From positions 3,946,141 through 4,010,140 of the forward strand of contig OZ244973.1 in the NCBI GenBank assembly GCA_965222885.1: DNA of 64,000 bases, in the 5' to 3' direction. The first letter of the stretch is position 1; the number at the start of each line of letters is the position of its first letter. The position numbers and the translations under genes are program-made. Below are positions 6,465-53,928 of this stretch, in pieces. The DNA comes from Terriglobia bacterium. Its GTDB lineage: Bacteria > Acidobacteriota > Terriglobia > UBA7540 > JAPUME01. The notes below the pieces were generated by a model. That model had not been told where the DNA came from and searched no databases. It worked only from the letters and a program-made list of their open reading frames with translations.

Positions 6465-6582
6465 AAACTACGCACGATCGGGTTGCCAGTCGAAGAACCG
6501 GCGGTGGGGCGACTCTTGTGAAGCAGCCAGCCTTCTGAGAGAATCCCGGCATTCGCAGCCCGGACCGAGAGGGGACAGAGCC

Positions 6583-7842: not shown

Positions 7843-7887
7843 GGCTCGCGTGCTCTGCCCGACTCGATGCTGCCGAGCCACGCGTGC

Positions 7888-9345: not shown

Positions 9346-9626
9346 TTTTCTCTCCCTCCTGCCTTGCCCAGCCCATTCGCCGCGCCCAGCAAAAAGCGGC
9401 CGTCCAAAGCATTGGCGTCCTAAGCTTATTAGCAGAGAAAGGGGTCGCTAGGCAAATGAGAAAGAGCGGTCGGGACAAGGTGCCTCTTTCAGGCCCAATA
9501 GAAAACAGCCCACGCCAGGGTGGTCAAACGCCCCCACAGCAGGTAGAATAGGCGTCTCAAAAACCAGACGACGAGTTGGCAGCAACCCGCCGGGTCTGGC
9601 CCTTGTGAAACCTTGATCCGGCGGTT

Positions 9627-11003: not shown

Positions 11004-11033
11004 GTTCTCACCATGAAAAGGGGGTGAACTCAA

Positions 11034-12194: not shown

Positions 12195-12416
12195 CTGCGC
12201 CACCCCCCAGGCTCCCTCGCTGTCCGGCCAAGCTCAACCGATGCCGGAATGGAGCCGTTGCCGTTTCCGGGTGAAACTTCCCAGGGCCATGCCCTTCGAG
12301 GGGCTTGACTTTGCTCTTGGTTTGGAAATAATGGGGGCGTCTCCAATCCAAACTTTTAGACCTCTTTCGGCCTACGCGGGGCCCAAGGGGAAATCTCCGG
12401 GAAAGGAATACCAGTC

Positions 12417-13466
12417 ATGCGAAAAATAAAGGGGCCTGCCGTTCTGCTGGCGCAATTTTTACGGGATGAAGAACCCTTCAACAACCTCAAGAACATCGCC
12501 AAGTGGTTTGCGGGGATGGGATACAAGGGGCTGCAGATCCCCGGTTGGGACCCCCGGACCATTGATCTCAACCAGGCCGCAGAATCGAAGACCTATTGTG
12601 ATGAATATAAAGGAATACTCCAGGAGCTGGGATTGGAGGTGACCGAGGTGGCAGGCCACTTGCAAGGCCAAGTTCTGGCGATCCACCCGGCCTACGAAGT
12701 CATGTTCGAGGCATTCCACCCGGAGGGTCTGAAGGGAGAGGCGAGAACCGACTGGGCCGCCGGGGAACTGAAAAAAGTCATCCAGGCTTCGGCCAATCTG
12801 GGCACTACCAACCTTCCGGTTATGTCGGGCGGCTTTGCCTGGCACACGATCTACCCTTGGCCTCAGCGCCCGCAGGGAATTGTTGACGAAGCCTTCAAAG
12901 AACTTGCCAAGCGCTGGAAGCCCATACTGGACGCCGCCCACGAAAAGGGACTCTACGTCACCTACGAGCTTCACCCGGGCTCGGACGTTTACGACGGGGC
13001 GACCTTCGAGATGTTCCTGAACTACACGCAGAATCATCCCGCCGCCGGTATCAACTACGATCCCAGCCACTTCGTTCTCCAGCAACTGGATTATTTGGAT
13101 TTCATCCGGCTCTATGGGGACCGCATCAAAGGCTTCCACGTCAAGGATGCCGAGTTCCGACCCAGCGGACGCGTCGGGGTCTATGGGGGCTACCAATCCT
13201 GGGCCGGACGCGCGGGGCGATTCCGCTCCTTGGGAGACGGGCAGGTGGACTTCCACCGTGTTTTTACCCTATTGACCGAGGCGGGCTTCGACGGCTGGGC
13301 CGTTCTGGAATGGGAGTGCTGTGTCAAAAGTCCCGAGCAAGGAGCCCGGGAAGGCGCCCCGTTCATCGCCCAGCACCTGATCGAAGCCACCGAGGTTGCC
13401 TTCGACGACTTCGCCGCGGGCAAGGCGGACCCGGAACGGAACCGAAAAATTCTCGGCTTAACTTAA
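12417..13466 (+). CDS. sugar phosphate isomerase/epimerase (xylose-isomerase-like TIM barrel)
   Basis: 349 aa. Pattern YELHPGSDVYDG...GINYDPSHFVLQ...HVKDAE...FDGWAVLEWE. Confidence 0.6.
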   Translation: MRKIKGPAVLLAQFLRDEEPFNNLKNIAKWFAGMGYKGLQIPGWDPRTIDLNQAAESKTYCDEYKGILQELGLEVTEVAGHLQGQVLAIHPAYEVMFEAFHPEGLKGEARTDWAAGELKKVIQASANLGTTNLPVMSGGFAWHTIYPWPQRPQGIVDEAFKELAKRWKPILDAAHEKGLYVTYELHPGSDVYDGATFEMFLNYTQNHPAAGINYDPSHFVLQQLDYLDFIRLYGDRIKGFHVKDAEFRPSGRVGVYGGYQSWAGRAGRFRSLGDGQVDFHRVFTLLTEAGFDGWAVLEWECCVKSPEQGAREGAPFIAQHLIEATEVAFDDFAAGKADPERNRKILGLT

Positions 13467-32692: not shown

Positions 32693-32918
32693 ACTTTTTT
32701 GCAGTAATAGTTTTTAATCTGCAATGGCCCTGCTCGTCGTAAGGATGCCTCAACAAGCCGGCCGTGAGCCTAATGAATCTTTGGACCCGCTCTCGTGAAC
32801 GAGCTTCGCGCTCAGGTGAACTATGGCGAGTCCAACACGGCAAATTACCCTCTTATTGCAGGTCTTCATTTTGCCGCAATTCCTCATCTTCAAACTGGAC
32901 AAAATATCCGGGACCCCT

Positions 32919-32970
32919 CAACGGCGTATGGACTAACATAGAAAAGGGGACGATAACTAGGGGCAGATCA
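32919..32970 (+). mobile_element. IS3/IS407-like right-end remnant
   Basis: caacggcgtatggactaacatagaaaaggggacgataactaggggcagatca parallels the orfB stop plus right IR of the IS at 53907..53958 (caacggcttatggactaacataacaaagtggaccaacaaccgggggcaggtca). Confidence 0.55.
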
Positions 32971-33072
32971 CGGTAGCGCGCCAACGACATCGTGGCCAAC
33001 CCAGGTGTCATTCGAGTATGTCGCGGCGGACCTGGTTGGTAGCTGCGCATCTTTATTAAAATAAGCCTGAGC

Positions 33073-34185
33073 ATGAATACTCATATTCGTGAAATCTCCA
33101 TCGGCGCTGGTCGCGTGTTGAAGGCAACGCCAGTTCTGGATACCTATTGGCGGTTTGCGCAGGTACGGCAGAGTATTTTTCACAGACGGGTGCTAGGCGA
33201 GGCGCCGCCTTGGACCGACGATCCAGTTCTCGCTGAGCACCGATTCACGAACGCGTACCGTGCCGCTGATCGCGTGAGCCAGTTCCTGATCCGCGACGTG
33301 ATTTATTCGGAACTAGAGACACCCGAGGAAGTGTTTTTTCGCACGCTCTTCTTCAAGATCTTCAACCGGATCGAAACGTGGAACTCTGTCCGCAATGTTG
33401 TTGAGCAGATCACCTGGAATGATTTCGACTTCGAACGATACGCTCAGACTCTGGATGCGATCCGTGCGAATGGCACGAGCATTTATTCAAACGCTTACAT
33501 CATGCCCTCACCACCCTTTGGGGAACAACGCAAGCACCGCAACCATCTTCGTCTTTTAGAACAGATGATGCGCGATCGGTTGCCCGATAGGATTGCATCT
33601 GCGTCATCCCTGGAGGCTGTATTCCTGGCTCTGCAGCAGTACCCGTCGTTCGGGCGATTTCTGGCTTTTCAGTTTGCTATTGACCTGAACTACAGCACAA
33701 TCTGCGACCACTCTGAAATGGATTTTGTAGTTGCGGGACCCGGTGCGTCGGATGGAATCAGGAAATGTTTCGTCGACACTGCGGGCCTGACGGATGAAGA
33801 AGTCATACGGGTTGTCACTGAGCGCGCCAGCGAGGAATTCGCGCGCCTAGATATTGAGTTTGACGACCTATGGGGGCGCCCCCTTCAGCTAATCGACTGC
33901 CAGAATCTGTTTTGTGAGGTCGGCAAGTACGCAAGGGTCGTGCATCCTGAGTATCAAAGTGTTTCTGGTCGAACCCGAATCAAACAACGCTTCTCGCCGC
34001 TATCAAAGGCTCTGCCTCAGTGGTATCCGCCGAAGTGGGGAATAGAGCCCCCGATCACGCCAGCGGCAACTGAGAGTAATAGCTGCGCTATGGGAGGCGA
34101 ACCGCCGTTCGGCCTCGAAATCTTCGCTGGCCCCCGTCGGAGATCCAATCATTCTCGTGAGGCGACAGCGATAACCCAGTCCTGA
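33073..34185 (+). CDS. putative DNA base hypermodification family protein (5-hmdU-DNA-kinase helical-domain / aGPT-pyrophosphorylase-like); tentative
   Basis: 370 aa. The N-terminal pattern YWRFAQVRQSIFHRR..G..PPWTDDPVL..HRFTNAYRAADRVSQFLI and the later FLAFQFAIDLNYS match my memory of bacterial proteins annotated as nucleotide kinase domain / putative DNA base hypermodification proteins. No search was run. Confidence 0.35.
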   Translation: MNTHIREISIGAGRVLKATPVLDTYWRFAQVRQSIFHRRVLGEAPPWTDDPVLAEHRFTNAYRAADRVSQFLIRDVIYSELETPEEVFFRTLFFKIFNRIETWNSVRNVVEQITWNDFDFERYAQTLDAIRANGTSIYSNAYIMPSPPFGEQRKHRNHLRLLEQMMRDRLPDRIASASSLEAVFLALQQYPSFGRFLAFQFAIDLNYSTICDHSEMDFVVAGPGASDGIRKCFVDTAGLTDEEVIRVVTERASEEFARLDIEFDDLWGRPLQLIDCQNLFCEVGKYARVVHPEYQSVSGRTRIKQRFSPLSKALPQWYPPKWGIEPPITPAATESNSCAMGGEPPFGLEIFAGPRRRSNHSREATAITQS

Positions 34186-34450
34186 TCCAGCAAGAGGACG
34201 GTATGGACCGCACATCCGCCGCGGGCCACCCGCGTAGCGACAGGCGTCCAAGAGTGTGGCAACGTAAAATGCTCTGGCAGTGTGGTCAGTTCGACTTGTT
34301 CGAAGTCGATAGATTGTTGATCCTCTACTCTCAAGGCCTTGTAGACCGCCTCCTTCATGGCGAAATGGGCAGTGATGAAGAGCGTAGCTCTAGCACCGTC
34401 AACCTGCTTTAGCCGCGAGCGCTCCGCAGTAGTCAGTACTCGCTCCGCTA

Positions 34451-35570
34451 GTGGACTGTCGCAAAGTAACTTTATCTATGGAGAGGGCGTCTATACAGTA
34501 TGCCCTTTCAAAGCGAACCGTTCGTGTTGAGCCAACAGCAACGATCCGAACTCGAGGAGGTCGCCCGTTCGCAATCGCTGCCCGCCGGCTTTGTCTTACG
34601 CGCTCGAATCATCGCGTTACTCGCCGACGGCCTCTCCTACGCCGCCGTCGCCGACAAACTGGATTGCTCCACACCGACCGTCGGGAAATGGAAGAAACGC
34701 TTCCTCGAACACGGACTCGACGGACTGGAAACCCACCGTCCCGGGCAACCACCCTCGAAACTCACCGCCCGCTTGCGTGCCAAAATCCTCAATGCCACCC
34801 GCCGCCAGCCTGGCGACGGTTCGACCCACTGGTCCTGCCGCAAACTCGCCAAAGAACTCAGCATCAGCAAAGACTTGGTTCATCGTGTTTGGCGGGAAGC
34901 CGATCTCAAGCCGCATCGGTTGGAGCGCTACATGGCCTCCAACGACCCCGACTTCGAGCGCAAAGCTGCCGACATCATCGGTCTCTACCTCGATCCGCCG
35001 CGCCATGCCGCCGTGTTCTGCGTGGACGAAAAGACCGCTATGCAAGCGCTCGACCGTCGCGACCGCGTCTTGCCGCTGTCCCCTGGACGCGCCGAGCGGC
35101 ATGGTTTCGAGTACAAGCGCAACGGCACTCTCTCCCTCTACGCCGCCTTAAACACCAAGACTGGGCAGGTGCATGGGAAGACCGCCGCGCGTCACACCAG
35201 CCAGGACTGCGTCGAGTTTCTCGGTGAGGTCGTCGCCCGCTGCGAGCCCGACCAGGAGATTCACCTCATCCTCGACAACCTCTCGGCTCACAAGACCAAG
35301 CAGGTGGCAGCGTTCCTCGAGCGGCACCCCAACGTCGCCTTACACTTCACGCCGACTTACTCGTCGTGGCTGAACCAGGTCGAGTTGTGGTTTTCTAAGG
35401 TGCAACGCGACGTCATTGCCCGCGGCGTGTTCCCCTCCACCACCGATCTCGCCCGCAAACTCCGCCGCTACATCAACGCCTACTCGAAAGACGCCAAGCC
35501 TTTCCGCTGGAAATACTCCAGGCCCTCCCGCCGCATCCGCCATGGTAAAACTATCTCTGCGACAGTCCAC
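34451..35570 (+). mobile_element. IS630-family insertion sequence (copy 1)
   Basis: Terminal IRs gtggactgtcgcaaagta / gtggactgtcgcagagat. Flanking TA duplication at 34449-50 and 35571-72. The transposase stop codon uses the target TA. Confidence 0.85.
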
Positions 35571-35573
35571 TAG
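34500..35573 (+). CDS. IS630 family transposase
   Basis: 357 aa. N-terminal HTH region and a DDE core (FCVDEKTAMQALDR...ILDNLSAHKT...HFTPTYSSWLNQVELWF). Confidence 0.85.
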   Translation: MPFQSEPFVLSQQQRSELEEVARSQSLPAGFVLRARIIALLADGLSYAAVADKLDCSTPTVGKWKKRFLEHGLDGLETHRPGQPPSKLTARLRAKILNATRRQPGDGSTHWSCRKLAKELSISKDLVHRVWREADLKPHRLERYMASNDPDFERKAADIIGLYLDPPRHAAVFCVDEKTAMQALDRRDRVLPLSPGRAERHGFEYKRNGTLSLYAALNTKTGQVHGKTAARHTSQDCVEFLGEVVARCEPDQEIHLILDNLSAHKTKQVAAFLERHPNVALHFTPTYSSWLNQVELWFSKVQRDVIARGVFPSTTDLARKLRRYINAYSKDAKPFRWKYSRPSRRIRHGKTISATVH

Positions 35574-36097
35574 TTTCTGATCGGTCTCCTCCGCACACTC
35601 AACGTCAATCCCGACCCCCTCAGCGACAGTGGCCACCGCCAGCGTCAACGGTCCCTTTCGACTGATCGAACCGGCAAAGCCTAGTGGGACGATAGGTGCA
35701 CCCGAGGCCGCCGAGAGGATTGGGACGCGTGGAGCCGCAAGATGCGCGAGCGCTGTGGTCAGACACATCCGTCCGGCGATCCATCTACGACGATAGTCCG
35801 GCTCAAGTGCAGAGGCGTGTGTCAGTTCCGTTGGATGGAGTGTCTGGAGGGTTCGAGCCGTTGGGTTGTCTGGGCATATAGCGCAAATAAGCGTCCCAGC
35901 AGGACAGCCGGCAAGCTCTTCTGGGGTCCAGTACGGACGTGATCTGCCGAGAATTCCGGGAGGTGGGGGGGTAAGGGGCACAATGGATGCTACCAGATTC
36001 CAAGATGTTAGAAAACAAAAACTATTCCCTTGGCAAATGTTTGTTTATCGAACATAATGATGTTATTCGGTTCGACTGAATTGATCGGAGGTATTTA

Positions 36098-36493
36098 GTG
36101 AACTCGCTTCCTGTGGACAAGGTGCAGTTCGACGCTAAAGCACCTGAATTGAAGGCCCTCACGCGCGATTGGGCGGACCGGGAATGTACGCCCTTTAACG
36201 AGGCAGTCCGTCGCGCGGCCGGTCTTCCGAAAGGCAGCAGCGGTTCGATCTGGGAGATGCCTTCCATCGATTCGAAGCGCGTCGTCTCATTGCTCGTAGA
36301 ACTCGAGCCGGTTTTGAGCTGCAAGCTGCCATTGACGCTAGTCAAGCGTGGTGGCTACATTAGCACGGACGACCTTGTCGCCGACTTGATGCCTAAGATT
36401 CGCGGGTATTGTTCAGAGCCGTCGGCTCCGACCGCAAACCCACAGGATGGAGGCGCTACCGCGGTAGTGACCACCAGTTCGCCCATTTTCTAG
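36098..36493 (+). CDS. carrier-protein-like small protein (possible phosphopantetheine attachment site); tentative
   Basis: GTG start with a GGAGG RBS. The segment WEMPSIDSKRVVSLLVELEPVLSCKLPLTLVKRGGYISTDDLVADL aligns by eye with the PCP/ACP core (GGxDS-L..v.L...le...g..LP...lf...T...La..l). It is divergent from the PPTase gene. Confidence 0.35.
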   Translation: MNSLPVDKVQFDAKAPELKALTRDWADRECTPFNEAVRRAAGLPKGSSGSIWEMPSIDSKRVVSLLVELEPVLSCKLPLTLVKRGGYISTDDLVADLMPKIRGYCSEPSAPTANPQDGGATAVVTTSSPIF

Positions 36494-36502
36494 GGGGACA
36501 CC

Positions 36503-36850
36503 ATGGACACTGAAACAACGACTCTCGGTGCTCGACTTCGCGAGGCACGCGAGTATTTCCGGCTATCACAGGATGAAGTGGCCAGAGTAATCGGACTACC
36601 AAGGGCCGCGATCTCCCTAATCGAGAATGGGCGGCGCAAGGTCGCAGCGCTTGAGTTGAAGAAGTTCGCGGATTTGTACCAGCGACCCGTTACCGATTTC
36701 ACTGGAGATGTCGAAGTAGCCAGTCCAGTTCGGGAGACAGTTCAGCACTTGACGCGCGTCGCTACAAAGCTGGCAGAGGCTGACCAAGCTGAGTTGGTCC
36801 GGTTCGCTGAATTCCTTGGCTCGAGAGCAGCGAAGAAGCGGGAGGCCTGA
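36503..36850 (+). CDS. XRE-family helix-turn-helix transcriptional regulator
   Basis: LGARLREAREYFRLSQDEVARVIGLPRAAISLIENGRRKV is a canonical Cro/C1-type HTH. Confidence 0.85.
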   Translation: MDTETTTLGARLREAREYFRLSQDEVARVIGLPRAAISLIENGRRKVAALELKKFADLYQRPVTDFTGDVEVASPVRETVQHLTRVATKLAEADQAELVRFAEFLGSRAAKKREA

Positions 36851-36852
36851 CG

Positions 36853-37845
36853 ATGGCCGCGCGCGAAGCAATTCTCGAAGGCACTCAGGCAGCGCAACGC
36901 CTTCACGCTCAACTTGGTACACGCGCAGCCGTGGAACAAGGGGGGCTTTCGTATATCGATGTGTTTGCTGTTGCGATGGAATTGGGCGCCGTGTTGCTCT
37001 TTCGCAGGCTGGAGGGAATGTTGGGAGCATACCTCGCCGATTCCGGGATACCCGGAATTATTGTTTCGACGCAGCGGAGCCTCCACATCCAGCGCTTTAC
37101 AGTGGCCCACGAGATCGGCCATCTATTCATGCGTCACGACTTGAGCCTGGATCAGCAAGTTGGCCTCTGGAGGGGCTCGTCAAGAGACTTGGGAGAGGTT
37201 GCCGCTGATGCATTCGCTTCCGAGTTCATGTTGCCTCGATGGTTGTACGTTCACCACTCAGCTCGGCAGCGATGGGACAGTGCCGCTCTTCAGGATCCTC
37301 GCTTGGTTTATCAACTCTCGCTGCGCCTTGGCGCGAGCTATGACGCAACCTGCTGGGGCCTCAAAGGACATCGAATTCTAAAGCCACACGAGATGGCCAA
37401 GCTGTGGGATGTTGAGCCGAAGGAACTGAAGGTTGCTGCGCTTGCCGGCATGGCAGACCGAATAGATCCGTGGGCGGATGTCTGGGTGATTACGGAGGCT
37501 GACAACGGTTTGAGATTCCAGGGTGGCCCGAACGACATCGTTGTGTTTAGGATCCCGGAACGGGCGTCCGCTGGCTATCTCTGGGACGAATCACAACTAT
37601 GGAAAGACGGATTTGAATTGCTGGCCGATGATCGCGAAGAAGGAGATGAAGAGGAGTGTGGCAGTACGCTCACACGTGTGCTGGTGACGCGCGTGAGGGA
37701 ATCGTGCGAATGCCAAGTCTCACTCTCCGAGCGTCGCCCATGGCAACCGGACGAATCAGTCGGTAAGCTCGCCATCGCGTTCGACATGCAAGGTAAAGAG
37801 GATGGCCTGCCCAGGCTGGCTAGGAAGGCGATCGTCGCTGCATGA
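36853..37845 (+). CDS. ImmA/IrrE-family zinc metallopeptidase fused to a C-terminal chagasin-like (MEROPS I42) cysteine-peptidase-inhibitor domain
   Basis: HEIGH at aa 86-90 (nt 37108-37122) followed by AADAFASEFMLP. The C-terminal ~110 aa (nt ~37465-37797) align by eye with chagasin: NG.....G..V.F.IPERASAGYLW (cf. NPTTGFAW), ECGSTLTRVLVTRV (cf. GAGGTEHFHVTV), SERRPWQP (cf. YMRPWTGP). Confidence 0.7.
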   Translation: MAAREAILEGTQAAQRLHAQLGTRAAVEQGGLSYIDVFAVAMELGAVLLFRRLEGMLGAYLADSGIPGIIVSTQRSLHIQRFTVAHEIGHLFMRHDLSLDQQVGLWRGSSRDLGEVAADAFASEFMLPRWLYVHHSARQRWDSAALQDPRLVYQLSLRLGASYDATCWGLKGHRILKPHEMAKLWDVEPKELKVAALAGMADRIDPWADVWVITEADNGLRFQGGPNDIVVFRIPERASAGYLWDESQLWKDGFELLADDREEGDEEECGSTLTRVLVTRVRESCECQVSLSERRPWQPDESVGKLAIAFDMQGKEDGLPRLARKAIVAA

Positions 37846-38483
37846 GTATCATCGTCGATGTCGACTTGCGAAGCAAGCTCGGCGACACGCGTGATCAACG
37901 ACAGAGACCGACCTGCTTGGCATTCGCCGTGTCGGCCGCTCACGAGGCCAGTCGAGTGTCGAACGACTATCTCTCTACCGAGTTCCTCTTTTTTAGCGGT
38001 GCGCAGCGATCGCACCGCGATCCAAACCGTGGCCTTAGTAGAACCGCAGTCGCGGAAGCCCTGCGGGAAGATGGGCAACCTTGCGAGGCTGCGTGGCCGT
38101 ATCGGGTGGAACCGCCTGCCGCCGCGAATTGGAAGGCGCCGGAGAATTGCGAGCCCCTTCACAGGGCGACGGTCACATTTACCTCCGGGACCTTGACCGA
38201 GGTTGGACAGACGCTTCGCATCGGGGTGCCGGTAGTGCTAGTAGTATCGCTCACGATGGCAATGTATGTGCCCGATGCGAACGGAATTGTTCGGTCTCGT
38301 CAGAGTGACGTCACCACGACGAGCCGCCACGCATTGTTGGCGGTCGGTTTAGGACATGACAACGACGGTGAGTACATCTTGGTGCGCAACAGCTGGGGAG
38401 CGCGCTGGGGACTGCTGGGTCATGCTTGGTGTCACGGTTCCTGTTTCGTCGGCCGACTCCATTGGACAGGTACGATTTCCTAG
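37842..38483 (+). CDS. papain-like C1 family cysteine peptidase (no signal peptide)
   Basis: DQRQRPTCLAFAVSAAHE (oxyanion Gln plus catalytic Cys25), SRHALLAVGLG (His), YILVRNSWGARWG (Asn-Ser-Trp-Gly). ATGA overlap with the upstream inhibitor-fusion gene. Confidence 0.75.
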   Translation: MSIIVDVDLRSKLGDTRDQRQRPTCLAFAVSAAHEASRVSNDYLSTEFLFFSGAQRSHRDPNRGLSRTAVAEALREDGQPCEAAWPYRVEPPAAANWKAPENCEPLHRATVTFTSGTLTEVGQTLRIGVPVVLVVSLTMAMYVPDANGIVRSRQSDVTTTSRHALLAVGLGHDNDGEYILVRNSWGARWGLLGHAWCHGSCFVGRLHWTGTIS

Positions 38484-38495
38484 AGAGGCACGCAG

Positions 38496-39314
38496 ATGAA
38501 GCTGATCGCTGCTGATACTCTGGCACAAGCCTGGCTACAGGGTTGTGGTCACCTTCGCGACCTAGCTGGATGGGTGGATACGACTGTGGTGTTGCAGATC
38601 GCTGAGCCTACACTGGTTCGTTCCCAGGACCGGGCGGTCGCGGAGAGACTTAACGAGTATCTGGTAAGCCACGGCAGGTTTAGCAATCACACTGTGGCCG
38701 AAACGATTTTCCCAGGATACGAGTACGTACACAGGGGCGTTAAAGGCGTATACGAAGTGTATCCAGACGAGATCTATCCGAGAATCAAAGGCCACAAGGA
38801 TATGCGTCGGTGGGGAGCGTACGCATACAGGCTGTTGCGCCGGAGGGATGAGAGTGGAAAGGTCTACAATCCGCTGTCACAATGCATCAAAAAGATGAAG
38901 GACAAGCAACCAAAACGTGCAGCCTATGAGATGGGTTTGGGCTTTGACCTCGCGGTGTATGACGACAATGCAGACAGGGAGTCCAGGATGGGAGGGCCTT
39001 GCCTCAGCCATCTCAGTTTCAAGTTCATCGAGAAGAGAATTCAGCTGACCGCGCTCTATCGTTCGCACTACTATGTGCAGCGAGCGTACGGGAATCTGCT
39101 CGGGCTTGCTAGGTTGCAGTCGTTCGTCGCTTACCAGGTCGGTGTCGAGCCTGGACCGCTCGTGTGTCATTCGACAATGGCCGTCCTGGAGCACGGAAAG
39201 CCGTGGGGCTGGTCGAAAGGCGAGGTTTCGCCTCTTCTCAGCGAATGTGAGGCCCTTATGAAAGGCCAGACCCCGACCGCCTTTGTCGCGCAGTCAATGG
39301 GCCATCATGCCTGA
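38496..39314 (+). CDS. thymidylate synthase / dNMP hydroxymethylase-fold protein
   Basis: GGPCLSHLSFKFIEKRIQLTALYRSHYYVQRAYGNLLGLARLQSFVAYQVGVEPGPLVCH parallels the ThyA core [39 protein letters not shown]...G......GD.H. The catalytic-Cys context is retained. Confidence 0.6.
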   Translation: MKLIAADTLAQAWLQGCGHLRDLAGWVDTTVVLQIAEPTLVRSQDRAVAERLNEYLVSHGRFSNHTVAETIFPGYEYVHRGVKGVYEVYPDEIYPRIKGHKDMRRWGAYAYRLLRRRDESGKVYNPLSQCIKKMKDKQPKRAAYEMGLGFDLAVYDDNADRESRMGGPCLSHLSFKFIEKRIQLTALYRSHYYVQRAYGNLLGLARLQSFVAYQVGVEPGPLVCHSTMAVLEHGKPWGWSKGEVSPLLSECEALMKGQTPTAFVAQSMGHHA

Positions 39315-40554
39315 ACCCAAGAGCACGAGTGGTGTTGTATTGCCCTCCGATATTACGTGGGACAGTGGCGTGCACCTTCTTGAATATCAGCGGGCCGTTC
39401 GCGAAACTGACCGTCTGCCACAAGACGATTTAGGCACTCCGGTGCTAGGTCTATTCGGCGAGGTTGGCAGTTTGCTGTCTGTCGTCAAGAAGAGGAAGCG
39501 TGACGCCGTAGCCTATGTTGGCTATGACGCCGCGATCATTGAGGAACTCGGCGATGCGCTTTGGTACTTCACCTGCATTGCGAATCGCGTAGCGCTAGAC
39601 CTGTCTGTCCTCGCGCAGGGGGTGTTTTGCGATGCGAGTGACCGGGATGAGTGCCAGGCGGATGAGTTTGGCACGTGGGGTGACGTCCAGTCCGCTCGTC
39701 CGCTGGCCGAAGACGAGGATCTGTTCGCCTCGATGAGCCTCCTCGCTGGCCTGACGGGGAAACTCGTTGGCGGCTTGCGCGGTGGACTTGTCGAAGGCCG
39801 GGAGCGGTTGTCTGGAGACATGAGCGCTGTTCTTCGATCGTTGATTGGGTTCGCCACCGCAGCTGACCTCGATCTGGACGTGGCAGCTCGCCAAAACCTC
39901 GAGAAGATCTTCAGTCGGTATCCTCGGGAACTCAAATACCCGCCGCTCCCGGACGATAACGTGACGTTACACGAGCGGCTTCCGCGTCGATTCGACCTGT
40001 TCGTTGGCGAACACGATGTCAATGGCAAAACCTACGTGATGCTGATCTGCAACGGCGTGATCATAGGAGACCGTGTGACCGACAACAAAGCTGAGGAAGA
40101 CGACTATAGGTTCCACGATGTCTTTCACGTTGCCTATGCAGTTCATTTGAGTTGGTCTCCGATCCTGCGCGGGCTGTTCCGGGTAAAGCGAAAGAGCATG
40201 CCTGGGGTTGACGAGAACGAAGACGGGGCGCGCGCCGGTCTCATAGAGGAAGGCGTTGCTACGTTTATTTTTGGTCGTGCCCTTGAACAGAACCTGTTCG
40301 AAGATCTAGAGCACCTTGACTTCGATCTACTGAAACTAGTTAGAGGTTTCGTTCGTGGGTTCGAGGTCGAGCGCTGTGCGCTGTGGCAGTGGGAGCGAGC
40401 GATCCTTGATGGATTCAAGGTGTACCGCGAGTTCAAGAAGAACCGCCGCGGATATGTAGTTGCGGACCTAGTCGCCCACACCATCGAGTTTAGGGCAGCA
40501 GGCCGGGACGAGGACGGACTCAATTCTGTTGCAATCGTGGGTCGCCGCGAATAG
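39307..40554 (+). CDS. MazG-like all-alpha NTP pyrophosphohydrolase domain protein with a large uncharacterised C-terminal half
   Basis: LGLFGEVGSLLSVVKKRKRD......EELGDALWYFTCIANRVALDL is a MazG/HisE-type EExxE/D helix pair. ATG 39307 overlaps the upstream stop (ATGCCTGA). An alternative in-frame start lies at 39283. Confidence 0.6.
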   Translation: MPEPKSTSGVVLPSDITWDSGVHLLEYQRAVRETDRLPQDDLGTPVLGLFGEVGSLLSVVKKRKRDAVAYVGYDAAIIEELGDALWYFTCIANRVALDLSVLAQGVFCDASDRDECQADEFGTWGDVQSARPLAEDEDLFASMSLLAGLTGKLVGGLRGGLVEGRERLSGDMSAVLRSLIGFATAADLDLDVAARQNLEKIFSRYPRELKYPPLPDDNVTLHERLPRRFDLFVGEHDVNGKTYVMLICNGVIIGDRVTDNKAEEDDYRFHDVFHVAYAVHLSWSPILRGLFRVKRKSMPGVDENEDGARAGLIEEGVATFIFGRALEQNLFEDLEHLDFDLLKLVRGFVRGFEVERCALWQWERAILDGFKVYREFKKNRRGYVVADLVAHTIEFRAAGRDEDGLNSVAIVGRRE

Positions 40555-40627
40555 CGACAAATGGTGATTATGAGGGGCTCGTTCGGCCCCGGAGGTCAAC
40601 GCTTAGGATGTGTAGAAAGGCACCTCT

Positions 40628-41443
40628 GTGAGCTTCTGGAGTGGGGAAACTCTTGCTGCGCGGCTTCCTGGACTGGTCGAGCCGTTCAAAGAGTCAAAGA
40701 TCGACTGTGCTGCGTACACGCTCCAAGTTGGCCCAGAAGTGTATGTCTCCCCCTCCATCGTCGACGATGCCTCAACAACGAAGGTGCGGCTGAGAGAGGG
40801 CCAGTCCTTCGCTATACCTGCGGGTCAGTTTGCGTTCTTACTGACAGAAGAGCGAATTCGCGTACCAAGTTCCGCGTTGGCATTCATCTCCATCAAGGCG
40901 CGCATTAAGTTTAAGGGTCTTGTGAATGTGTCGGGATTCCACGTTGATCCTGGATATGAGGGCCGACTCATCTTCTCGGTGTTCAACGCAGGTCCCGCAC
41001 CTGTCCATCTTGCTCGGGGCGACGACTGTTTCCTGATGTGGTTCGCCAGCCTGGATGTGTCCTCGGAAGAGATCAAAAAGATGCCTGGTTTCGATGCCAT
41101 TCCGTCTAGCCTGATCAATCCCATCGCTGGGGAGATTCAGTCTTTCGCGGGACTGCTTGAGAAGATTCGCTCGACAGAAAAACGGATAGATGTGATCGAC
41201 AAGGCCCAATCGAAGATATTGGCCATTGCCACTCCCATCTTCGCGGCGTTATTGACACTGGCGATCATGCTTGGATTTCGTGCTTGTGAGGCTCCACCGA
41301 CTGTTTTACAGGTTGCGCCAGTCGGCGGATCATTGCCCCAACTCTCGGACCCTGGTCCATCATCGGCTTCGCAACCTGGGGCACCGGACGCAGCACCTCC
41401 ACAGGGCCAGGCTCCACCAGACCAGTCGGTGGCCGCCCCTTAG
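40628..41443 (+). CDS. dCTP deaminase/dUTPase-superfamily (Dcd-like) protein with a C-terminal TM helix and Pro/Gln/Ala-rich tail
   Basis: The N-terminal 145 aa follow the Dcd pattern (I.PF....I....Y.L.VG.E......L..G..F.IPAGQFA.LLTEE.I.VP......I..K.....GL.N.SGFHVDPGYEGRLIFSVFNAG..PV.L..GD....MWF). ILAIATPIFAALLTLAIMLGF (nt 41216-41278) is a predicted TM helix. Confidence 0.65.
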   Translation: MSFWSGETLAARLPGLVEPFKESKIDCAAYTLQVGPEVYVSPSIVDDASTTKVRLREGQSFAIPAGQFAFLLTEERIRVPSSALAFISIKARIKFKGLVNVSGFHVDPGYEGRLIFSVFNAGPAPVHLARGDDCFLMWFASLDVSSEEIKKMPGFDAIPSSLINPIAGEIQSFAGLLEKIRSTEKRIDVIDKAQSKILAIATPIFAALLTLAIMLGFRACEAPPTVLQVAPVGGSLPQLSDPGPSSASQPGAPDAAPPQGQAPPDQSVAAP

Positions 41444-41696
41444 GAGCAAGAGGGACGCGACTGACGCCCAAAGTATATCTTGGCCTCGCAGGCCTCAAGG
41501 CGATCATTCAGGCTGCATCCGCCTAGTAGTACCGGCTTGTGTTATTGGTTGGCCCGGCAGGATTCTAAAAGAGCGACCTGCTCAAGGCCCCGGCCGAGGG
41601 ACGTTGCCGAGTGGGCGGTGTGAAATTGGTGCTGATTAGAATGGTTGACGCCGATCGATTTGTTAAACGGCCAAGCTTTGTCAAGTTAAGATATTG

Positions 41697-41827: not shown

Positions 41828-42870
41828 GACCAGACCGATCTTTTGTACCAATCCTAGGGAGAGAGTTTACATCACAGCCTGGGGCTGCGAAATCGGTTCT
41901 GGGAGAAGAAATGGATTACCGGCCCCCGGCGCCGGGGGCCGGTAATCCAGCGCCGAGTGCGGTCTCCGGGTGTTGTATTCCTCCCGCCATTGCTCCATCA
42001 CGATCTGGGCCTCCTGCAACGAGTAGAAGATCTCCCCGTTCAGGCATTCATCCCGCAACTTCCCATTGAAACTCTCACCATACCCGTTCTCCCATGGACT
42101 ACCTGGTTCGATGTACAACCTTCCGGTCCCGAGATTCCCCAGCCATTGGCGCAACTTCCGGGCGACGAACTCCGGGCCGTTATCGGATCGAATGTGCTCC
42201 GGGATCCCTCGCCACAGCATCACCTCCGACAACGTCTCGATCACCTCCAGGCTGCCCATCCTTCGCTCCACTCGGATCGCCAGACATTCCCGCGTATACT
42301 CGTCCAGCAGCGTCAGCAACCGCAGCGTCCTTCCATCGTGGGTTCTGGCGCTAACAAAGTCATAGCTCCAGACGTGGTTGCGATGTTCCGGGCGCAGTCT
42401 CACACAGGAACCGTCGTTCCGCCAGAGTCGTCTTCGCGGCCGTTGTTTTGGCGGCCCTTTCAAACCTTCCCCACGCCAGATTCGCTGCACCCGATCCTTG
42501 CCTACCGACCAGCCTGCGTTCCGCAGCTACGCCGTGATTCGTCGATAGCCGTACCGCCCGTATTGCGCCGCCAGAGCGACCACCGCCCGGGTCAGCTCAT
42601 CCTCGTCCAGTCGATGAATCGGCTGGTATCGTTGCGTCCCCCTCCATGGCCCCAGCAGCCGGCAGGCGTGCCGTTCCGACAGGCCATGCTTCCCCCGTGC
42701 CCGCTCCACCGCACAACGTCGCCGCTCAGGGCTCAGAAGTTTCCCGGGGCCACCTCCTGCAAGACTTGCTTCTCCAGCGACAACTCCGCCACCAGCCGCT
42801 TCAACCGCGTGTTTTCCTTCTCCAACTCTTTCAGCCGTTTCGCCTGATCCAGCTTCGTTAGTGGCTCAGG
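41828..42870 (-). mobile_element. degenerate IS3-family (IS407-like) element: right IR + orfB with in-frame TAG + 3' end of orfA; left part missing
   Basis: Terminal tgaccagaccgatcttttgtacca. orfB is split by TAG at 42527-42529 (..YGYRRITA*LRNAGW..). The slippery GGGAAAC is at 42739-42745 (minus). Homology to the intact copy's orfA stops near 42860-42880, and AT-rich unrelated sequence follows. Confidence 0.75.
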
Positions 42871-43323: not shown

Positions 43324-44730
43324 ATGACCTCGGAGGAATTCGCAGCCGAGAACTGGATCGACCGCCTCGCGCCGGCGCTTCGCAGCTTGGCCGACGCACA
43401 GAAACCCTACCTGCAGGGATACTACAAGGAGAATCCGCGTGTGCATGTCGTGCTCGAAAAGCGGGGCGGCAATCCGTCGGCCTTCCCGCTGGACGATTTA
43501 CGCGACCTCTATGCAATGGCGTACCACAGCAAGGTGTTCGGCAAAGAGGAGTATTACGCGCCCCTGTGCGCGGTGCTGGACCCCGTTCGGAACATTCTGC
43601 GGTCGCATCCCACGCTGGCGCGGGTCGCGAGTCCGATCATCGGCCAGGACGAATTCTGGATGGAAATCCTCGGTGCCGGCAACTCGACCTCCCCGGCGGA
43701 CCTGATCGCGGGACTGATGGCGCGGACCGCGGAGCTGTCCGGCGACCGCTTCCGGACGGCGGCGGGCGAACTGAACGCGCTCCTCACTCCGGCCGCGGAA
43801 AGAGGGCCGGCCAGCGTGCCGGGAGAGCTGGATGTCGGATACGATGCAGTGCTGTTCTACGGCCTGACCCTGAAGGAAAGGATCGACATTGTGGACGGAA
43901 TAGTGCTCCTTCCTTTCGAACAGGCACGGGCGTTTGTGGACGAGAGCTTGGTGGAAGAGCTCGCCCCGCCGGGCGCCGGATTCCATAGATGTTGGTCGGT
44001 CGGGGCGGCGGTCAGACCGTTCCGGTGGAGGCCCGCGTTCCGCCGAACCGGCTATGAAAGCGATCCGGAACTGGAAAATCCGGGGCCGTTTTTCCGGGAG
44101 GCGTGGACCTTCCTGGAACTTCTTGCCGTGGCGCACGCGGCGCCGGTGCTGTGCCTTGCTACATTGTCCCCTTGCATCGACCGGTCTGCCGGTCGGCTCC
44201 TGGGTCGGGCGGATCATAGCGGTAGCCTCGACCGTGGCCGCTCGGCGCAAGGGTTCAATGGGTTCGAGGAGTGTCCGGAGCTAGCGCCCGAGGTGCTTGC
44301 CGAAGCGAGGGAAGCTTTCGAGAAACGAAAGAGTGAACGGTACGCTAGGGTGGCTCCGATCGTCGGTCGGCTTGCCGAAGCGCTCGCGAGGGATGGACGG
44401 TTCGCGGGCGACGACAGGATTCTGGATGTCGCAATCGCGCTGGAACGAATGTATGGACTGGACGGCGGTGAGATATCCCACAAGATGCGGACGCGGGCTG
44501 CATGGTTTCTTGGCGTTGACTCAGAAAGCAGGTTCCGGGAAATGAAGGCAGTCAAGGAGTTCTACGAAGCGCGATCGGCGATCGTCCATAACCGGAAGAA
44601 GAAGGCATCCTGGCAGAGAGATCGCGAGGCGTTCGACAAGGGATTCGACATCGCCAGAAGGACGCTGTTCAAGCTGTTGCACGAAGGCCCACCGGAGAGT
44701 TGGGACGAGTTGGTGATCGTGGGCGACTGA
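43324..44730 (+). CDS. ApeA-like HEPN-domain protein (putative single-gene defence/abortive-infection RNase)
   Basis: 468 aa. The C-terminal ~120 aa have an alpha-helical HEPN pattern ending in FYEARSAIVHNRK (R-x4-H). The large N-terminal domain is unrecognised. Confidence 0.45.
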   Translation: MTSEEFAAENWIDRLAPALRSLADAQKPYLQGYYKENPRVHVVLEKRGGNPSAFPLDDLRDLYAMAYHSKVFGKEEYYAPLCAVLDPVRNILRSHPTLARVASPIIGQDEFWMEILGAGNSTSPADLIAGLMARTAELSGDRFRTAAGELNALLTPAAERGPASVPGELDVGYDAVLFYGLTLKERIDIVDGIVLLPFEQARAFVDESLVEELAPPGAGFHRCWSVGAAVRPFRWRPAFRRTGYESDPELENPGPFFREAWTFLELLAVAHAAPVLCLATLSPCIDRSAGRLLGRADHSGSLDRGRSAQGFNGFEECPELAPEVLAEAREAFEKRKSERYARVAPIVGRLAEALARDGRFAGDDRILDVAIALERMYGLDGGEISHKMRTRAAWFLGVDSESRFREMKAVKEFYEARSAIVHNRKKKASWQRDREAFDKGFDIARRTLFKLLHEGPPESWDELVIVGD

Positions 44731-45801: not shown

Positions 45802-46896
45802 CTAGTGTACTGTCCCGGAAATATATGAGCAAAGTCGTTCGACCTTAGCGAGGATGGATTCGGCCGTGGCGGTCCAGACGAAAGGACTGGTGTTGGCGTT
45901 GTAATGTTCGACGAAGCGCTCGATGTTACGGACGAGAGCCTTGACGCTGGAGAAGGAACCTCGGCGAATGGCCTTCTGGGTAATGATGCCGAACCAGCGT
46001 TCGACTTGGTTGAGCCAGGACGCATAGGTTGGGGTGAAATGAACGTGGTAGCGGGGACGCCGAGCGAGCCAAGCGCGGACTTTGGGATGTTTGTGAGTAG
46101 CGTAGTTATCGACGATGAGATGGACGTCGAGGTTGTGCGGCACACTGCCGTCGATCTGACGCAGGAAAGTGAGGAACTCCTGATGACGGTGTCGCGGTTT
46201 ACAGCGGGTGATGACTCTCCCGGTGGCCACATCGAGAGCCGCGAACAGAGTGGTCGTGCCGTGACGTTTGTAATCATGGGTGACGCCTTCGACGTAGCCG
46301 AGGCCCATGGGGAGAACGGGCTGAGTTCGCTGAAGAGCTTGAACCTGGGTCTTCTCATCGACCGAGAGCACCACGGCGTGGTCCGGGGGATTGAGGTAGA
46401 GACCGACGATGTCGCGGACTTTCTCGACGAAGAACGGGTCGTTGGAAATCTTGAAATGCCGCTGGCGATGCGGCTGGACGCCGAACAGATCGAACCACCG
46501 CTGGACCGTGCTCTTTGAGACTCCCGTGTGTTCCGCCATGGAACGCACGCTCCAGTGCGAACGATCGGGAGGTTCGGTTTGCAGGGCCGTGTTGATGACT
46601 TCCGCAACACGTTCATCCTCATGCGTGCGGGGGCGTCCGGGACGCAGTTCATCGTGTAGTCCGGGGATTCCATGTTCACGATAGCGCTTTCGCCACTTGC
46701 CCACGGTCGTATTGGTGACACCCAGACGCCGGGCCACGGTAGAGCCGGGAACGCCTTCGGCGCAGGCCAGCACAATCTGGGCCCTCAGCACCAGACTATG
46801 CGGCAAGGTTCGGGAGCGGGCGAGGCTCCCCAGTTCCGATTCCTCACTCTCACTGAGAGTGAGGGGAGTAACGGGGCGACCGCGTGGCATGGGCAT
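45802..46896 (-). CDS. IS630 family transposase
   Basis: The start is placed at MPMPRGRP, inside the element, whereas the track ORF runs on to 47196 outside the IR. DDE core LSVDEKTQVQALQR...IVDNYATHKH...HFTPTYASWLNQVERWF. The stop uses the target TA. Confidence 0.85.
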   Translation of the reverse strand: MPMPRGRPVTPLTLSESEESELGSLARSRTLPHSLVLRAQIVLACAEGVPGSTVARRLGVTNTTVGKWRKRYREHGIPGLHDELRPGRPRTHEDERVAEVINTALQTEPPDRSHWSVRSMAEHTGVSKSTVQRWFDLFGVQPHRQRHFKISNDPFFVEKVRDIVGLYLNPPDHAVVLSVDEKTQVQALQRTQPVLPMGLGYVEGVTHDYKRHGTTTLFAALDVATGRVITRCKPRHRHQEFLTFLRQIDGSVPHNLDVHLIVDNYATHKHPKVRAWLARRPRYHVHFTPTYASWLNQVERWFGIITQKAIRRGSFSSVKALVRNIERFVEHYNANTSPFVWTATAESILAKVERLCSYISGTVH

Positions 46897-46953
46897 ACCT
46901 CCAGAGGCCAAAGGTTGCCCATTAATATATCGCTTATTACCGGGACAGTACAC
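45805..46953 (-). mobile_element. IS630-family insertion sequence (copy 2)
   Basis: IRs gtgtactgtcccggaaata / gtgtactgtcccggtaata. TA duplication at 45803-04 and 46954-55. Confidence 0.85.
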
Positions 46954-47224
46954 TAGCCAGCCGGATGTCTTATTCCGATGATCTTCTTCATCAACTTCAA
47001 GAAGTACGGCTGCCAGATAGGAGAGAAATGCGGCCAGAGGTTTTGTGAGGTCTCGGGGTTCCGTTTCCATATCAAGCCAGAATATCCACGCCATAGCAGA
47101 CAGTCCTGAGTGGGCCAGGCGAGCCTGGGGATGAGGCGAGCCTGTACCCCCTTGCTGGCTCACACTGGGCTGAGGTCTGCTATGGCAAGTAGTCACCTTA
47201 TCCTGGCCTCAAGGGGGGTTTCCA

Positions 47225-53073: not shown

Positions 53074-53928
53074 GTGGAGCGTGTCTGCCAGACCTTGGGA
53101 GTGTCGGAGTGTCGGGCGTGTCGAGTGCTGAGGCAGTACCGATCCACCCAGCGGCATCGAACCTTGACACCACAGGATGAACCGCGACTGGTGACCCGGA
53201 CGCTGCAGTTAGCCGGCGAGTACGGTCGATACGGCTACCGGCGGATCACGGCGCTGTTGCGACGGGAGGGGTGGAGGGTGAACCATAAGCGGGTGGAGAG
53301 AATCTGGAGGCAGGAGGGACTGAAAGTGCCGCAGAAACAACCCCGGAAAGGCCGCCTGTGGTGGAACGATGGGTCGTGTCTTCGGTTAAGACCGTGCTGG
53401 CGGGATCATGTCTGGGCGTACGATTTTGTGGCAGATCGAACCCGGGACGGTCGTCCCCTGAAGATGTTGACGGTGGTGGATGAGTACACGCGAGAATGTT
53501 TGGCCATCGACGTAGAACGGCGAGCTGATTCGATACGTGTCTTGGAACGGCTGGCAGCCTTGTTTGTGGAGCGAGGAGTTCCCGATTACCTTCGCTCGGA
53601 TAATGGATCCGAGTTCACAGCACGCTTGGTTCGGAACTGGCTGGAGCGGGTAGGGGTAAAGACCTTGTTCGTCGAGCCGGGGAGCCCATGGGAAAACGGG
53701 TATGTAGAATCGTTGAACGGGAAGTTTCGAGACGAGTTTCTCAATAGAGAGATCTTCTACACCTTGCGGGAAGCGAAGGTGTTGATGGAGGGATGGCGAC
53801 GGGAGTATAACAAAGTTCACCCGCACAGCGCGTTGGGCTACCGGCCGCCAGCCCCGGAAACGATCCTGCCGTTACCGCCGGGTTCCGCTCCGCTCCACCC
53901 GGCTGCAACGGCTTATGGACTAACATAA
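53074..53928 (+). CDS. IS3 family transposase OrfB (rve integrase core), out of the expected frame
   Basis: YGYRRITALLRREGW...WAYDFV...VVDEYTRECL...LRSDNGSEFTA...PGSPWENGYVESLNGKFRDE. The frame is +1 relative to orfA, not -1. Confidence 0.8.
   Translation: MERVCQTLGVSECRACRVLRQYRSTQRHRTLTPQDEPRLVTRTLQLAGEYGRYGYRRITALLRREGWRVNHKRVERIWRQEGLKVPQKQPRKGRLWWNDGSCLRLRPCWRDHVWAYDFVADRTRDGRPLKMLTVVDEYTRECLAIDVERRADSIRVLERLAALFVERGVPDYLRSDNGSEFTARLVRNWLERVGVKTLFVEPGSPWENGYVESLNGKFRDEFLNREIFYTLREAKVLMEGWRREYNKVHPHSALGYRPPAPETILPLPPGSAPLHPAATAYGLT

Follow-up and report, generated by a model that had tools for sequence, protein, structure and literature searches.

What does an HMUDK_hel protein do when it stands in a bacterial genome as a separate gene? 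The question is raised by an open reading frame (ORF) of 370 aa at 33073..34185 (+) in a stretch of 64,000 nucleotides from a Terriglobia bacterium (contig OZ244973.1, positions 3,946,141 to 4,010,140; hereafter, the window), which a first-pass annotation had described as a possible DNA base-hypermodification gene at the left edge of an island. We find that the ORF is a real gene encoding a stand-alone PF18723 protein with no kinase domain, and that a horizontally mobile cassette of ~7.6 kb has it as its signature gene. The cassette is an undescribed variant of a type only now being linked to phage defence. As to its function, we lean slightly towards a Cys281-dependent, DNA-directed pyrimidine-C5 enzyme that serves as the effector of an inducible defence cassette.

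The ORF begins with ATG, and its translation includes the motif strings EAPPWTDDPVLAEHRFTNAYRAADRVSQFLIRDV and EAPPWTDDPVLAEHRFTNAYRAADRVSQFLI. Its sole Pfam match is PF18723 (HMUDK_hel, formerly named aGPT-Pplase clade 1), with E=7.8e-108 and 360.5 bits against a gathering cutoff of 25. Residues 19-295 of the ORF align with profile positions 1-280 of 281, i.e. the full length of the domain. The Pfam search thus confirmed the family that the first-pass annotation had named, and its reading of an ORF of this length, with the motif it quoted, in an AT-richer segment agrees with the ORF listing and with a GC content of 0.530 at 33-34 kb, compared with 0.58-0.62 in the flanking DNA. Beyond PF18723, zero Pfam matches were obtained even at E<=10, and within that limit no P-loop nucleotide kinase domain was present in the 370 aa. 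We rejected the identity of a 5-hydroxymethyldeoxyuridine (5-hmdU) DNA kinase because the kinase domain is absent. PHROGs places the ORF in phrog_2396, where function is unassigned; no model in NCBIfam or PADLOC matched it, and a sequence search of the PDB gave no match at E<=1.

More than 8000 homologues of the ORF were retrieved at E<1e-5, some of them located on 22 plasmids, and PF18723 comprises 5077 clusters (50% identity) at E<=1e-3. The homologues carry names such as 'nucleotide kinase domain-containing protein', 'putative DNA base hypermodification protein' and 'aGPT-Pplase clade 1', the first two being those given in the first-pass annotation. The 'nucleotide kinase' annotation is misleading for stand-alone PF18723 proteins. 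Conservation of the protein extends to W322, while the tail (333-370) is disordered. Compared with a 96%-identical copy on L001, a contig from another sample, the gene has a dN/dS of 0.24, a substitution pattern that speaks of purifying selection; most other cassette genes tested gave values of 0.10-0.28.

Phages are one source of relatives. A tblastn search of phage genomes returned 505 records matching the ORF, every one below 60% identity, mostly from thymidine-hypermodifying lineages (ViI-like phages of Salmonella, Klebsiella and Dickeya, and M6-like phages of Pseudomonas), the rest including Vibrio and Microbacterium phages. In AN14, a phage of the M6 species, the homologue AN14_14 is assigned to HMUDK_hel by Pfam; it follows directly after the P-loop kinase gene (PF18748) and is flanked on its other side by a dUMP hydroxymethylase gene, while the transferase of this phage belongs to PF18724. 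In lysate reconstitution, the M6 kinase gp54 and transferase gp51 suffice for the glycinyl-thymidine (Nalpha-GlyT) intermediate (Lee et al., PMC8989533). Since the phage reconstitutions did not need the PF18723 domain, a stand-alone copy is misnamed a 'kinase'. The activity on 5-hmdU in DNA that had been ascribed to this gene accordingly belongs to the PF18748 kinase and the PF18724 transferase, not to this domain, and neither of the two is found in the ORF or its cassette. The hmU in DNA first suggested as substrate of this gene is thus a putative one.

The phage proteins (M6 gp55 type, SP10 gp186, PhiW-14, phiRSL1 and LuckyBarnes gp38) belong to the same Pfam family as the ORF, the C-terminal part of SP10 gp186 past its kinase domain presumably being the PF18723 domain. 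They share with the ORF a predicted all-alpha fold (TM ~0.6) and, like the window cassette, have a TS-family gene (thymidylate synthase, TS) nearby. However, their identity to the ORF is only 22-35%. The phage domain is fused to, or encoded beside, a P-loop 5-hmdU DNA kinase and co-occurs with the amino-acid:DNA transferase and tailoring enzymes, whereas the bacterial form lacks all of these and has as its partners MazG-MazG_C and a regulator/protease module. A scan of viral contigs yielded 16 loci, none with the kinase or the transferase. Several IMG/VR contigs (L080, L082, L084-L089 and L092), which may be phages or fragments of host DNA, encode a bacterial-type HMUDK_hel protein of 42-51% identity with the DCQN[LV]FC motif, without the cassette partners.

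In bacteria, the gene is part of a recurrent set. A forward scan with one genome per species recovered 75 HMUDK_hel loci across many phyla, at 48-69% identity; classes were counted in the 55 loci whose flanks measured 5 kb or more on each side. Nearly all of these (51 out of 55) belong to a cassette class. Type I (27 loci) has the order TIR-SLOG > ThsB_TIR > Nmad2 > MazG-MazG_C > ThsB_TIR > HMUDK_hel, with genes overlapping by 4 nt, and often lies within a type I restriction-modification locus. Type II (15 loci) combines HMUDK_hel with MazG_C, a TS-like protein, CapP, CapH and a phosphopantetheine-binding (PP-binding) protein, and type III (7 loci), to which the window belongs, adds a C1 peptidase and usually a phosphopantetheinyl transferase (PPTase). 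Two further loci contain MazG_C, CapH and a carrier protein, and four contain none of these. MazG_C was present in 44 of the 55 loci, lying no more than 700 bp from HMUDK_hel in 35, and the CapH/CapP pair was kept in 22.

The reverse test led to the same association. A profile of the TS-like protein retrieved 554 relatives from metagenomes; 80 loci were kept, 21 of them having flanks of 4.5 kb or more on each side. Within these 21, HMUDK_hel was found in 19, capP in 21, C1 in 20, the carrier in 18, a dCTP-deaminase/dUTPase-fold (DCD) gene in 14 and MazG_C in 8, the CapH/CapP pair being retained in 19-21. The recurrent order is ACP > capH > capP > C1 > TS-like > [MazG_C / DCD / second canonical TS] > HMUDK_hel, where ACP denotes an acyl carrier protein-like gene. 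Across the metagenome loci L095-L174, the gap between TS-like and HMUDK_hel holds alternatively MazG-MazG_C, a DCD-like gene or a second TS, and the window has both MazG-MazG_C and DCD. Both scans thus strongly uphold the link to TS-like, MazG and Dcd genes that the first-pass annotation had drawn. The part that is conserved consists of HMUDK_hel together with a nucleotide enzyme.

Searches covering all 75+80 related loci (with the M6 kinase as query) and the window itself (by a Pfam scan of the cassette ORFs) found the PF18748 kinase and the PF18724 transferase absent from every related locus, and in the cassette no match to a kinase family or to PF18724. HMUDK_hel does occur fused to other domains, as Thymidylate_kin-HMUDK_hel, HMUDK_hel-MazG-MazG_C, NADAR-HMUDK_hel-N6_N4 DNA methylase and HMUDK_hel-MT-A70. 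Fusion proteins of the bacterial type include P0361, P0364, P0365, P0366, P0367, P0392, P0422 and P0468. The methyltransferase fusions are the best indirect sign that DNA may be the substrate of HMUDK_hel.

A cultured strain also carries such a cassette: Sinorhizobium (S.) fredii NXT3 has a type II cassette on the conjugative plasmid pSfreNXT3a (L175, record positions 5345-13033), comprising a canonical TS, DCD, a carrier-like gene, HTH (helix-turn-helix), ImmA/IrrE, TS-like, HMUDK_hel, a MazG family gene and a terminal acpS. VapBC flanks it on one side and an ABC-three-component system on the other, and it would be a convenient test bed.

In the window, the whole cassette spans 32915..41639, a block shared with L001 at 96% identity and interrupted in the window by an insertion sequence (IS), as seen from blastn and the L001 gene map. 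L001 holds the same genes without the IS. The blastn comparison gave exactly two common blocks, 32915-34452 and 35566-41639, and the flanks are unrelated, so the cassette moved as one piece. Its left end lies 158 bp upstream of the HMUDK_hel ATG, in agreement with the left-edge position first assigned to the gene, and its right end ~200 bp beyond the stop codon of the DCD-like gene. In L001, hsdS/hsdM lie directly next to the cassette.

HMUDK_hel is followed by a convergent PPTase gene, their 3' ends overlapping by ~37 nt. This convergence had been noticed from the sequence, and the 4PPT_N match supports it; what had escaped notice is that the PPTase gene is split. Its 3' part, the ACPS half of an Sfp-type PPTase, lies at 34149..34450 (-), and its 5' part, with the 4PPT_N domain (Pfam E=1e-10), at 35573..35981 (-). 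Between them is an IS630-family element of 1120 bp (34451..35570, +), recognised by DDE_3 and HTH_23 and by the empty site in L001, with a transposase ORF at 34500-35573. It has terminal inverted repeats of 13 bp (GTGGACTGTCGCA/TGCGACAGTCCAC) and a TA target duplication, and the stop codon of the transposase is formed by the duplicated TA and the flanking G. In-silico removal of the IS restores a PPTase ORF of 236 aa that is 93% identical to the L001 PPTase, which has PF01648 (ACPS).

Upstream of the operon, a consensus scan (10/12) picked out a promoter-like site, TTGGCA-17-CATAAT, at 36030..36058 (+); it is a weak candidate, the regional count of such sites not being above that of shuffles. 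The regions preceding HMUDK_hel and the operon were compared in search of a shared operator, and no convincing common word or palindrome was found. The first gene of the operon (36098..36493, +) encodes a small ACP-like protein of 131 aa with an invariant D58-S59-K60 (alignment A3), a putative phosphopantetheine carrier. It has no Pfam match, alone or over 8 orthologues, and no PDB match; the assignment draws solely on hhalign, the DS motif and gene position. In hhalign, it aligns with the type II PP-binding family at a probability of 38% (E 3e-4), placing Ser59 on the phosphopantetheine Ser, and its gene shares its operon position with the type II protein that matches PF00550 PP-binding (22.9 bits, cutoff 20.8). 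Its dN/dS is 0.65. A carrier-like small gene is always first in CapH/CapP-type cassettes (further cases are L034:13895-14185 (-) and L175:4425-4733). A PPTase homologue stands beside the cassette in 10 loci from genomes and 18 from metagenomes, mostly just upstream of the carrier gene. A PPTase, of Sfp type or AcpS, travels with CapH/CapP-type cassettes.

The regulatory pair follows. A CapH-like XRE-family HTH regulator is encoded at 36503..36850 (+; HTH_3 E=7e-12, PADLOC capH E=3.4e-8), and a CapP-like M78/IrrE metallopeptidase with a chagasin-type I42 inhibitor domain at 36853..37845 (+; Peptidase_M78 E=9e-12, I42 E=2.9e-5, PADLOC capP E=9.6e-17). The I42 domain is present in 9 out of 9 CapP orthologues of type III cassettes (best E 4e-9). 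The gene for a papain-family C1 cysteine peptidase (37842..38483, +; Peptidase_C1 E=3.5e-12, with Cys/His/Asn triad motifs recognised by eye) overlaps the CapP-chagasin gene by 4 nt, and type II cassettes lack both I42 and C1. This pairing of CapP-I42 with a papain-like peptidase suggests a built-in inhibitor-protease switch.

Three genes for nucleotide enzymes complete the operon. At 38496..39314 (+) lies a divergent TS-fold enzyme with an invariant FPCLSH Cys (TIGR03283 E=3.4e-13, below cutoff; PHROG 5131; alignment A6), whose S. fredii orthologue is named thymidylate synthase by PGAP. A PDB profile search with its family returned spurious kinase-receptor matches only. MazG, an all-alpha dNTP pyrophosphatase, joined to MazG_C, occupies 39283..40554 (+; MazG_C E=2.9e-71, MazG E=5e-5), its start codon being uncertain, and an AlphaFold2 (AF2) model of the MazG domain resembles dimeric dUTPases, iMazG and DCTPP1. 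We considered and rejected a frameshift in the TS-like or MazG gene, since 272 and ~416 aa are lengths typical of the two families, the deviating gene calls being those of L001. The DCD-like protein is encoded at 40628..41443 (+; PF22769 E=5e-14; TIGR02274 E=5e-18, below cutoff). It has a hydrophobic C-terminal helix at aa 197-215 (Kyte-Doolittle 2.51), followed by a Pro-rich tail, and would be a membrane-anchored dCTP-deaminase-fold protein.

How does this cassette relate to known defence systems? The closest tested system is DS-4 (working name NTTI) of E. coli, one of 42 validated systems, which comprises a TS, a P-loop dNMP kinase, a PF18723 protein, TIR and Nmad2 (DefensePredictor, Science 2026, PMC13092281). 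It provides the sole experimental data found on a bacterial PF18723 system, with no mutants or mechanism reported (PMC13092281). Systems with aGPT-Pplase, MazG, MazG-C, dUTPase and NMAD are listed in the same work as predicted but untested (PMC13092281). The PF18723 protein of DS-4, DS-4C (WP_087900470), aligns with the ORF over 314 aa (26% identity, E 8e-32), the Cys residues of the two coinciding, and both systems hold a TS-family or TS-fold gene. The architecture of DS-4 is that of the TIR/Nmad2 class, home of 27 out of 55 close ORF homologues. The window cassette, however, lacks the TIR, Nmad2 and P-loop dNMP kinase of DS-4, having in their place CapH/CapP, chagasin, the papain-like protease, ACP-like, PPTase, MazG-MazG_C and DCD-like genes, and its TS-fold gene is only remotely like the DS-4 TS (hhalign probability 16%). 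It and the TIR/Nmad2 cassettes are sister architectures.

The second point of comparison is provided by operons under CapH/CapP control, in CBASS and elsewhere, which are likewise headed by an adjacent XRE HTH and M78/IrrE pair. The window differs from them in the extra chagasin-type domain of CapP and the papain-like protease that follows, and its effectors are nucleotide and DNA-base enzymes rather than cyclic-nucleotide synthases. We found no description in the literature of a CapH / CapP-chagasin / papain / ACP / PPTase architecture.

The fold of the protein offers some clues to its chemistry. An AF2 model built from a 35-sequence alignment is all-alpha, with a mean pLDDT of 79 and a pTM of 0.78. 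Foldseek against BFVD retrieved SP10 gp186 at E 4e-13, with PhiW-14, phiRSL1 and other phage members at up to E 3e-6; matches to phage PF18723 members had TMq values of 0.49-0.64. The same search returned 'helical domain' proteins of Nodularia and Microbacterium phages and 'Pplase1' models at 2e-8, and its matches to amino-acid:DNA transferase models were weaker (E 4.6e-3, prob 1.0, TM 0.49). Against the PDB, only weak matches to helix-hairpin-helix (HhH) DNA glycosylases were obtained, the best being the 3-methyladenine glycosylase 2H56 (E 0.14), with OGG1 also among them (TM 0.29-0.45). These matches agree with published work that assigns a glycosylase-like HhH fold to this group of proteins (PMC8989533, PMC5889632), but the catalytic Asp/Lys signature of these glycosylases was not identified in HMUDK_hel.

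Bacterial, viral-contig and phage members share 22 invariant positions, including D275, C281, E282, K285 and Y286, and a nearly invariant D50 (at least 90%; alignment A5). The motifs common to bacterial and phage members are WTxDP, a GPG loop and C-E-x-x-K-Y with its invariant Cys, and hhalign matches the ORF family to the M6 gp55-type protein at a probability of 99%. The PF18724 transferases (M6 gp51, ViI gp247, PaMx11 gp46 [PUGT, PDB 8Z2M/8Z2N], YuA and SH-Ab 15599 Pplase2) belong to a helical, HhH-related fold class, to which the model of HMUDK_hel also points. They use an invariant Cys (C247 in PaMx11 gp46, C226 in SH-Ab 15599) together with Asp/Glu/Thr metal ligands, and flip their target base from the DNA duplex (PMC11472151, PMC13458397). 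By eye, their motifs are collinear with those of HMUDK_hel (an N-terminal D-P, FG(P/R)...D and x-x-x-x-C), of which only the FG...D and Cys motifs fall within a non-significant hhalign match. That match sets FGRFLAFQ..D on FGPWIGFK..D and DCQNLFC281 on EVETVLC247, in the same Cys281/Cys247 register that had been read by eye from the AN14 sequences; Asp50 lines up with transferase Asp24 by eye only. It is a reasonable inference from these alignments that Cys281 would be the catalytic nucleophile.

Taken together, CapH/CapP gating, the TIR/SLOG sister architectures and DS-4 argue for an inducible defence cassette rather than constitutive hypermodification, and we consider a defence role fairly likely. 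CapH/CapP, as described by Lau and colleagues in 2022, reportedly keeps an operon silent until DNA damage or infection. In the mechanism we propose, CapH would repress the operon until infection or DNA damage triggers CapP. The DCD-like protein and MazG would convert dCTP/dUTP to dUMP/dCMP, and the TS-fold enzyme would add a one-carbon group at C5, probably hydroxymethyl, a supply logic that resembles the phage routes to hydroxymethyl (hm)-dUTP and hm-dCTP known from T4 and SPO1 metabolism. The altered pyrimidine would be incorporated into replicating DNA, where HMUDK_hel, as an all-alpha relative of the base-flipping amino-acid:DNA transferases, could act on it through Cys281 and Asp50, so that replicating phage DNA would be poisoned or marked. 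The parts of this proposal differ in strength: we see even chances that DNA is the substrate of HMUDK_hel, and Cys-C6 chemistry on a 5-hydroxymethylpyrimidine is a tentative suggestion, on the doubtful side. A more specific version, in which a Cys281-dependent transferase makes a C5 exocyclic-methylene intermediate on the cassette-fed hm-pyrimidine in DNA and captures the phosphopantetheine thiol of the carrier, the resulting DNA-protein or DNA-pantetheine adduct blocking phage replication, is very improbable. If true, it would amount to immunity by enzymatic DNA hypermodification or cross-linking and would give the phage clade-1 proteins a function.

Three other explanations have to be set against the DNA-directed enzyme. 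HMUDK_hel might be a non-catalytic adaptor, its helical domain binding DNA or a modified base and recruiting a partner enzyme (MazG-MazG_C here, P-loop kinases in phages and DS-4, methyltransferases in the fusions). This would fit a domain that is fused to, or found beside, several unrelated enzyme classes, whose current Pfam name is helical domain and whose fold links to catalytic families are weak; moreover, phage kinases are active without PF18723 and gp55 is dispensable in vitro. We nevertheless hold it unlikely, because the sequence is very strongly constrained (identities of 55-70% between phyla and ~100 invariant positions in alignment A1), the invariant Cys, three Asp and the GPG loop are kept in phage members too, and HMUDK_hel stays a separate gene while the partner slot varies among MazG_C, DCD and a second TS. 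Alternatively, the cassette could deplete or corrupt pyrimidine dNTPs, through dCTP deamination, dNTP pyrophosphohydrolysis and C5 alkylation, with HMUDK_hel acting on free nucleotides or as a regulator and never on DNA. The DCD-like, MazG and TS-fold proteins are all nucleotide enzymes, the slot beside HMUDK_hel always holds one, and nucleotide depletion by dCTP deaminases, as reported by Tal and colleagues in 2022, is an established defence mechanism. The fusions to N6_N4_Mtase, MT-A70 and NADAR, the median isoelectric point (pI) of 9.35 in the family and the failure of the PADLOC dCTP-deaminase models to match the DCD-like gene all count against such a pool effector, as does the fact that the nearest structurally characterised relatives flip bases from duplex DNA (PMC11472151, PMC13458397). 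We regard it as quite unlikely.

The last alternative was implicit in the first-pass annotation, namely that the cassette constitutively hypermodifies T or C in the DNA of the host or the mobile element as protection from restriction, as in M6, ViI, SP10 and PhiW-14. The predominance of thymidine-hypermodifying lineages among the 505 phage records, the position of the AN14 homologue between kinase and dUMP hydroxymethylase genes, and the presence of a TS-fold gene, MazG and DCD in the cassette are in line with this idea. It sits poorly with the lack of both the PF18748 kinase and the PF18724 transferase in the ORF, in its cassette and in the 75+80 loci, with a CapH/CapP-type stress switch at the head of the operon and with the TIR/SLOG modules of sister cassettes. 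Furthermore, replication-coupled modification cannot separate self from non-self, and phage structural genes are absent nearby. With DS-4 also favouring inducible defence, we judge self-modification improbable.

Several observations also weigh against the Cys281-dependent defence enzyme that we favour. No demonstrated enzymatic activity has been reported for any PF18723 protein, phage or bacterial (cf. PMC8989533); omission of M6 gp55 made no difference to Nalpha-GlyT formation, and SP10 gp186 cut down to its kinase domain still phosphorylates hmU DNA (PMC8989533). The kinship with the transferases is a candidate relation built on a fold match of modest strength and a profile alignment short of significance: against a 32-sequence PF18724 profile, hhalign gave a probability of 1.4% (E 0.037, not significant), a comparison of the HMUDK_hel family with a single transferase sequence gave no match, no PF18724 Pfam match exists in the ORF, and thus no significant sequence or profile match joins the two families. 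The metal-ligand positions Glu243-Thr244 of the transferase correspond to Gln277-Asn278 in HMUDK_hel, and the PF18724 pathway has a kinase that supplies the phosphorylated substrate, whereas the window cassette has none. The pI of the window protein (6.1) is the lowest in the 35-sequence family sample. Most type I loci lack a TS-fold gene, so an hm-pyrimidine cannot be the universal substrate, and the TS-fold protein, to judge by its profile scores, matches TS models only below their cutoffs. The fold search with MazG-MazG_C was dominated by the MazG half and did not confirm the 'kinase' label of MazG_C, for which no structural match was obtained. HMUDK_hel, TS-like, MazG_C and DCD-like are not covered by any PADLOC model, the last being missed by the dCTP-deaminase models of that collection. 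DS-4 carries a different sensor set from that of the window cassette, and its phenotype is weak: lambda is the sole entry in Table S7, with smaller plaques and a -log(EOP) (efficiency of plating) of 0.93 (PMC13092281). Finally, the IS630 within the PPTase gene means that the carrier-protein branch is maybe disabled in this genome, and the system of the window may be impaired.

The surroundings of the cassette are rich in other elements. Downstream lies an IS-rich stretch (41867-42490, 45802-47196, 53074-53928 and 43324-44730) with IS3-type integrase ORFs and another IS630-type transposase, extended at its N-terminus, as well as a 468-aa ORF with no match in Pfam, NCBIfam, PADLOC or PHROGs. Some 16-20 kb downstream of the cassette are a type I restriction-modification HsdR (57602-60586) and an HsdS (61171-61992), together with a type IV restriction gene of the GmrSD family (61989-63845). 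The last of these had been counted as part of the island, but it lies 20 kb off, outside the cassette, and the vsr gene also placed there did not turn up among the ORFs scanned.

Stand-alone bacterial PF18723 proteins are, then, almost never alone; they recur as the fixed member of a small number of mobile cassettes. A class of such cassettes, represented by DS-4, has recently been reported to affect phage infection, and the class found in the window adds an unusual control and effector set consisting of CapH, a CapP joined to a protease inhibitor, a protease of the papain type and a carrier protein accompanied by its own PPTase. Should the cassette indeed make and then process a modified DNA pyrimidine, it would turn the base-modification chemistry of the phages themselves to defence, and the 'spare' clade-1 gene of thymidine-hypermodifying phages would be explained.

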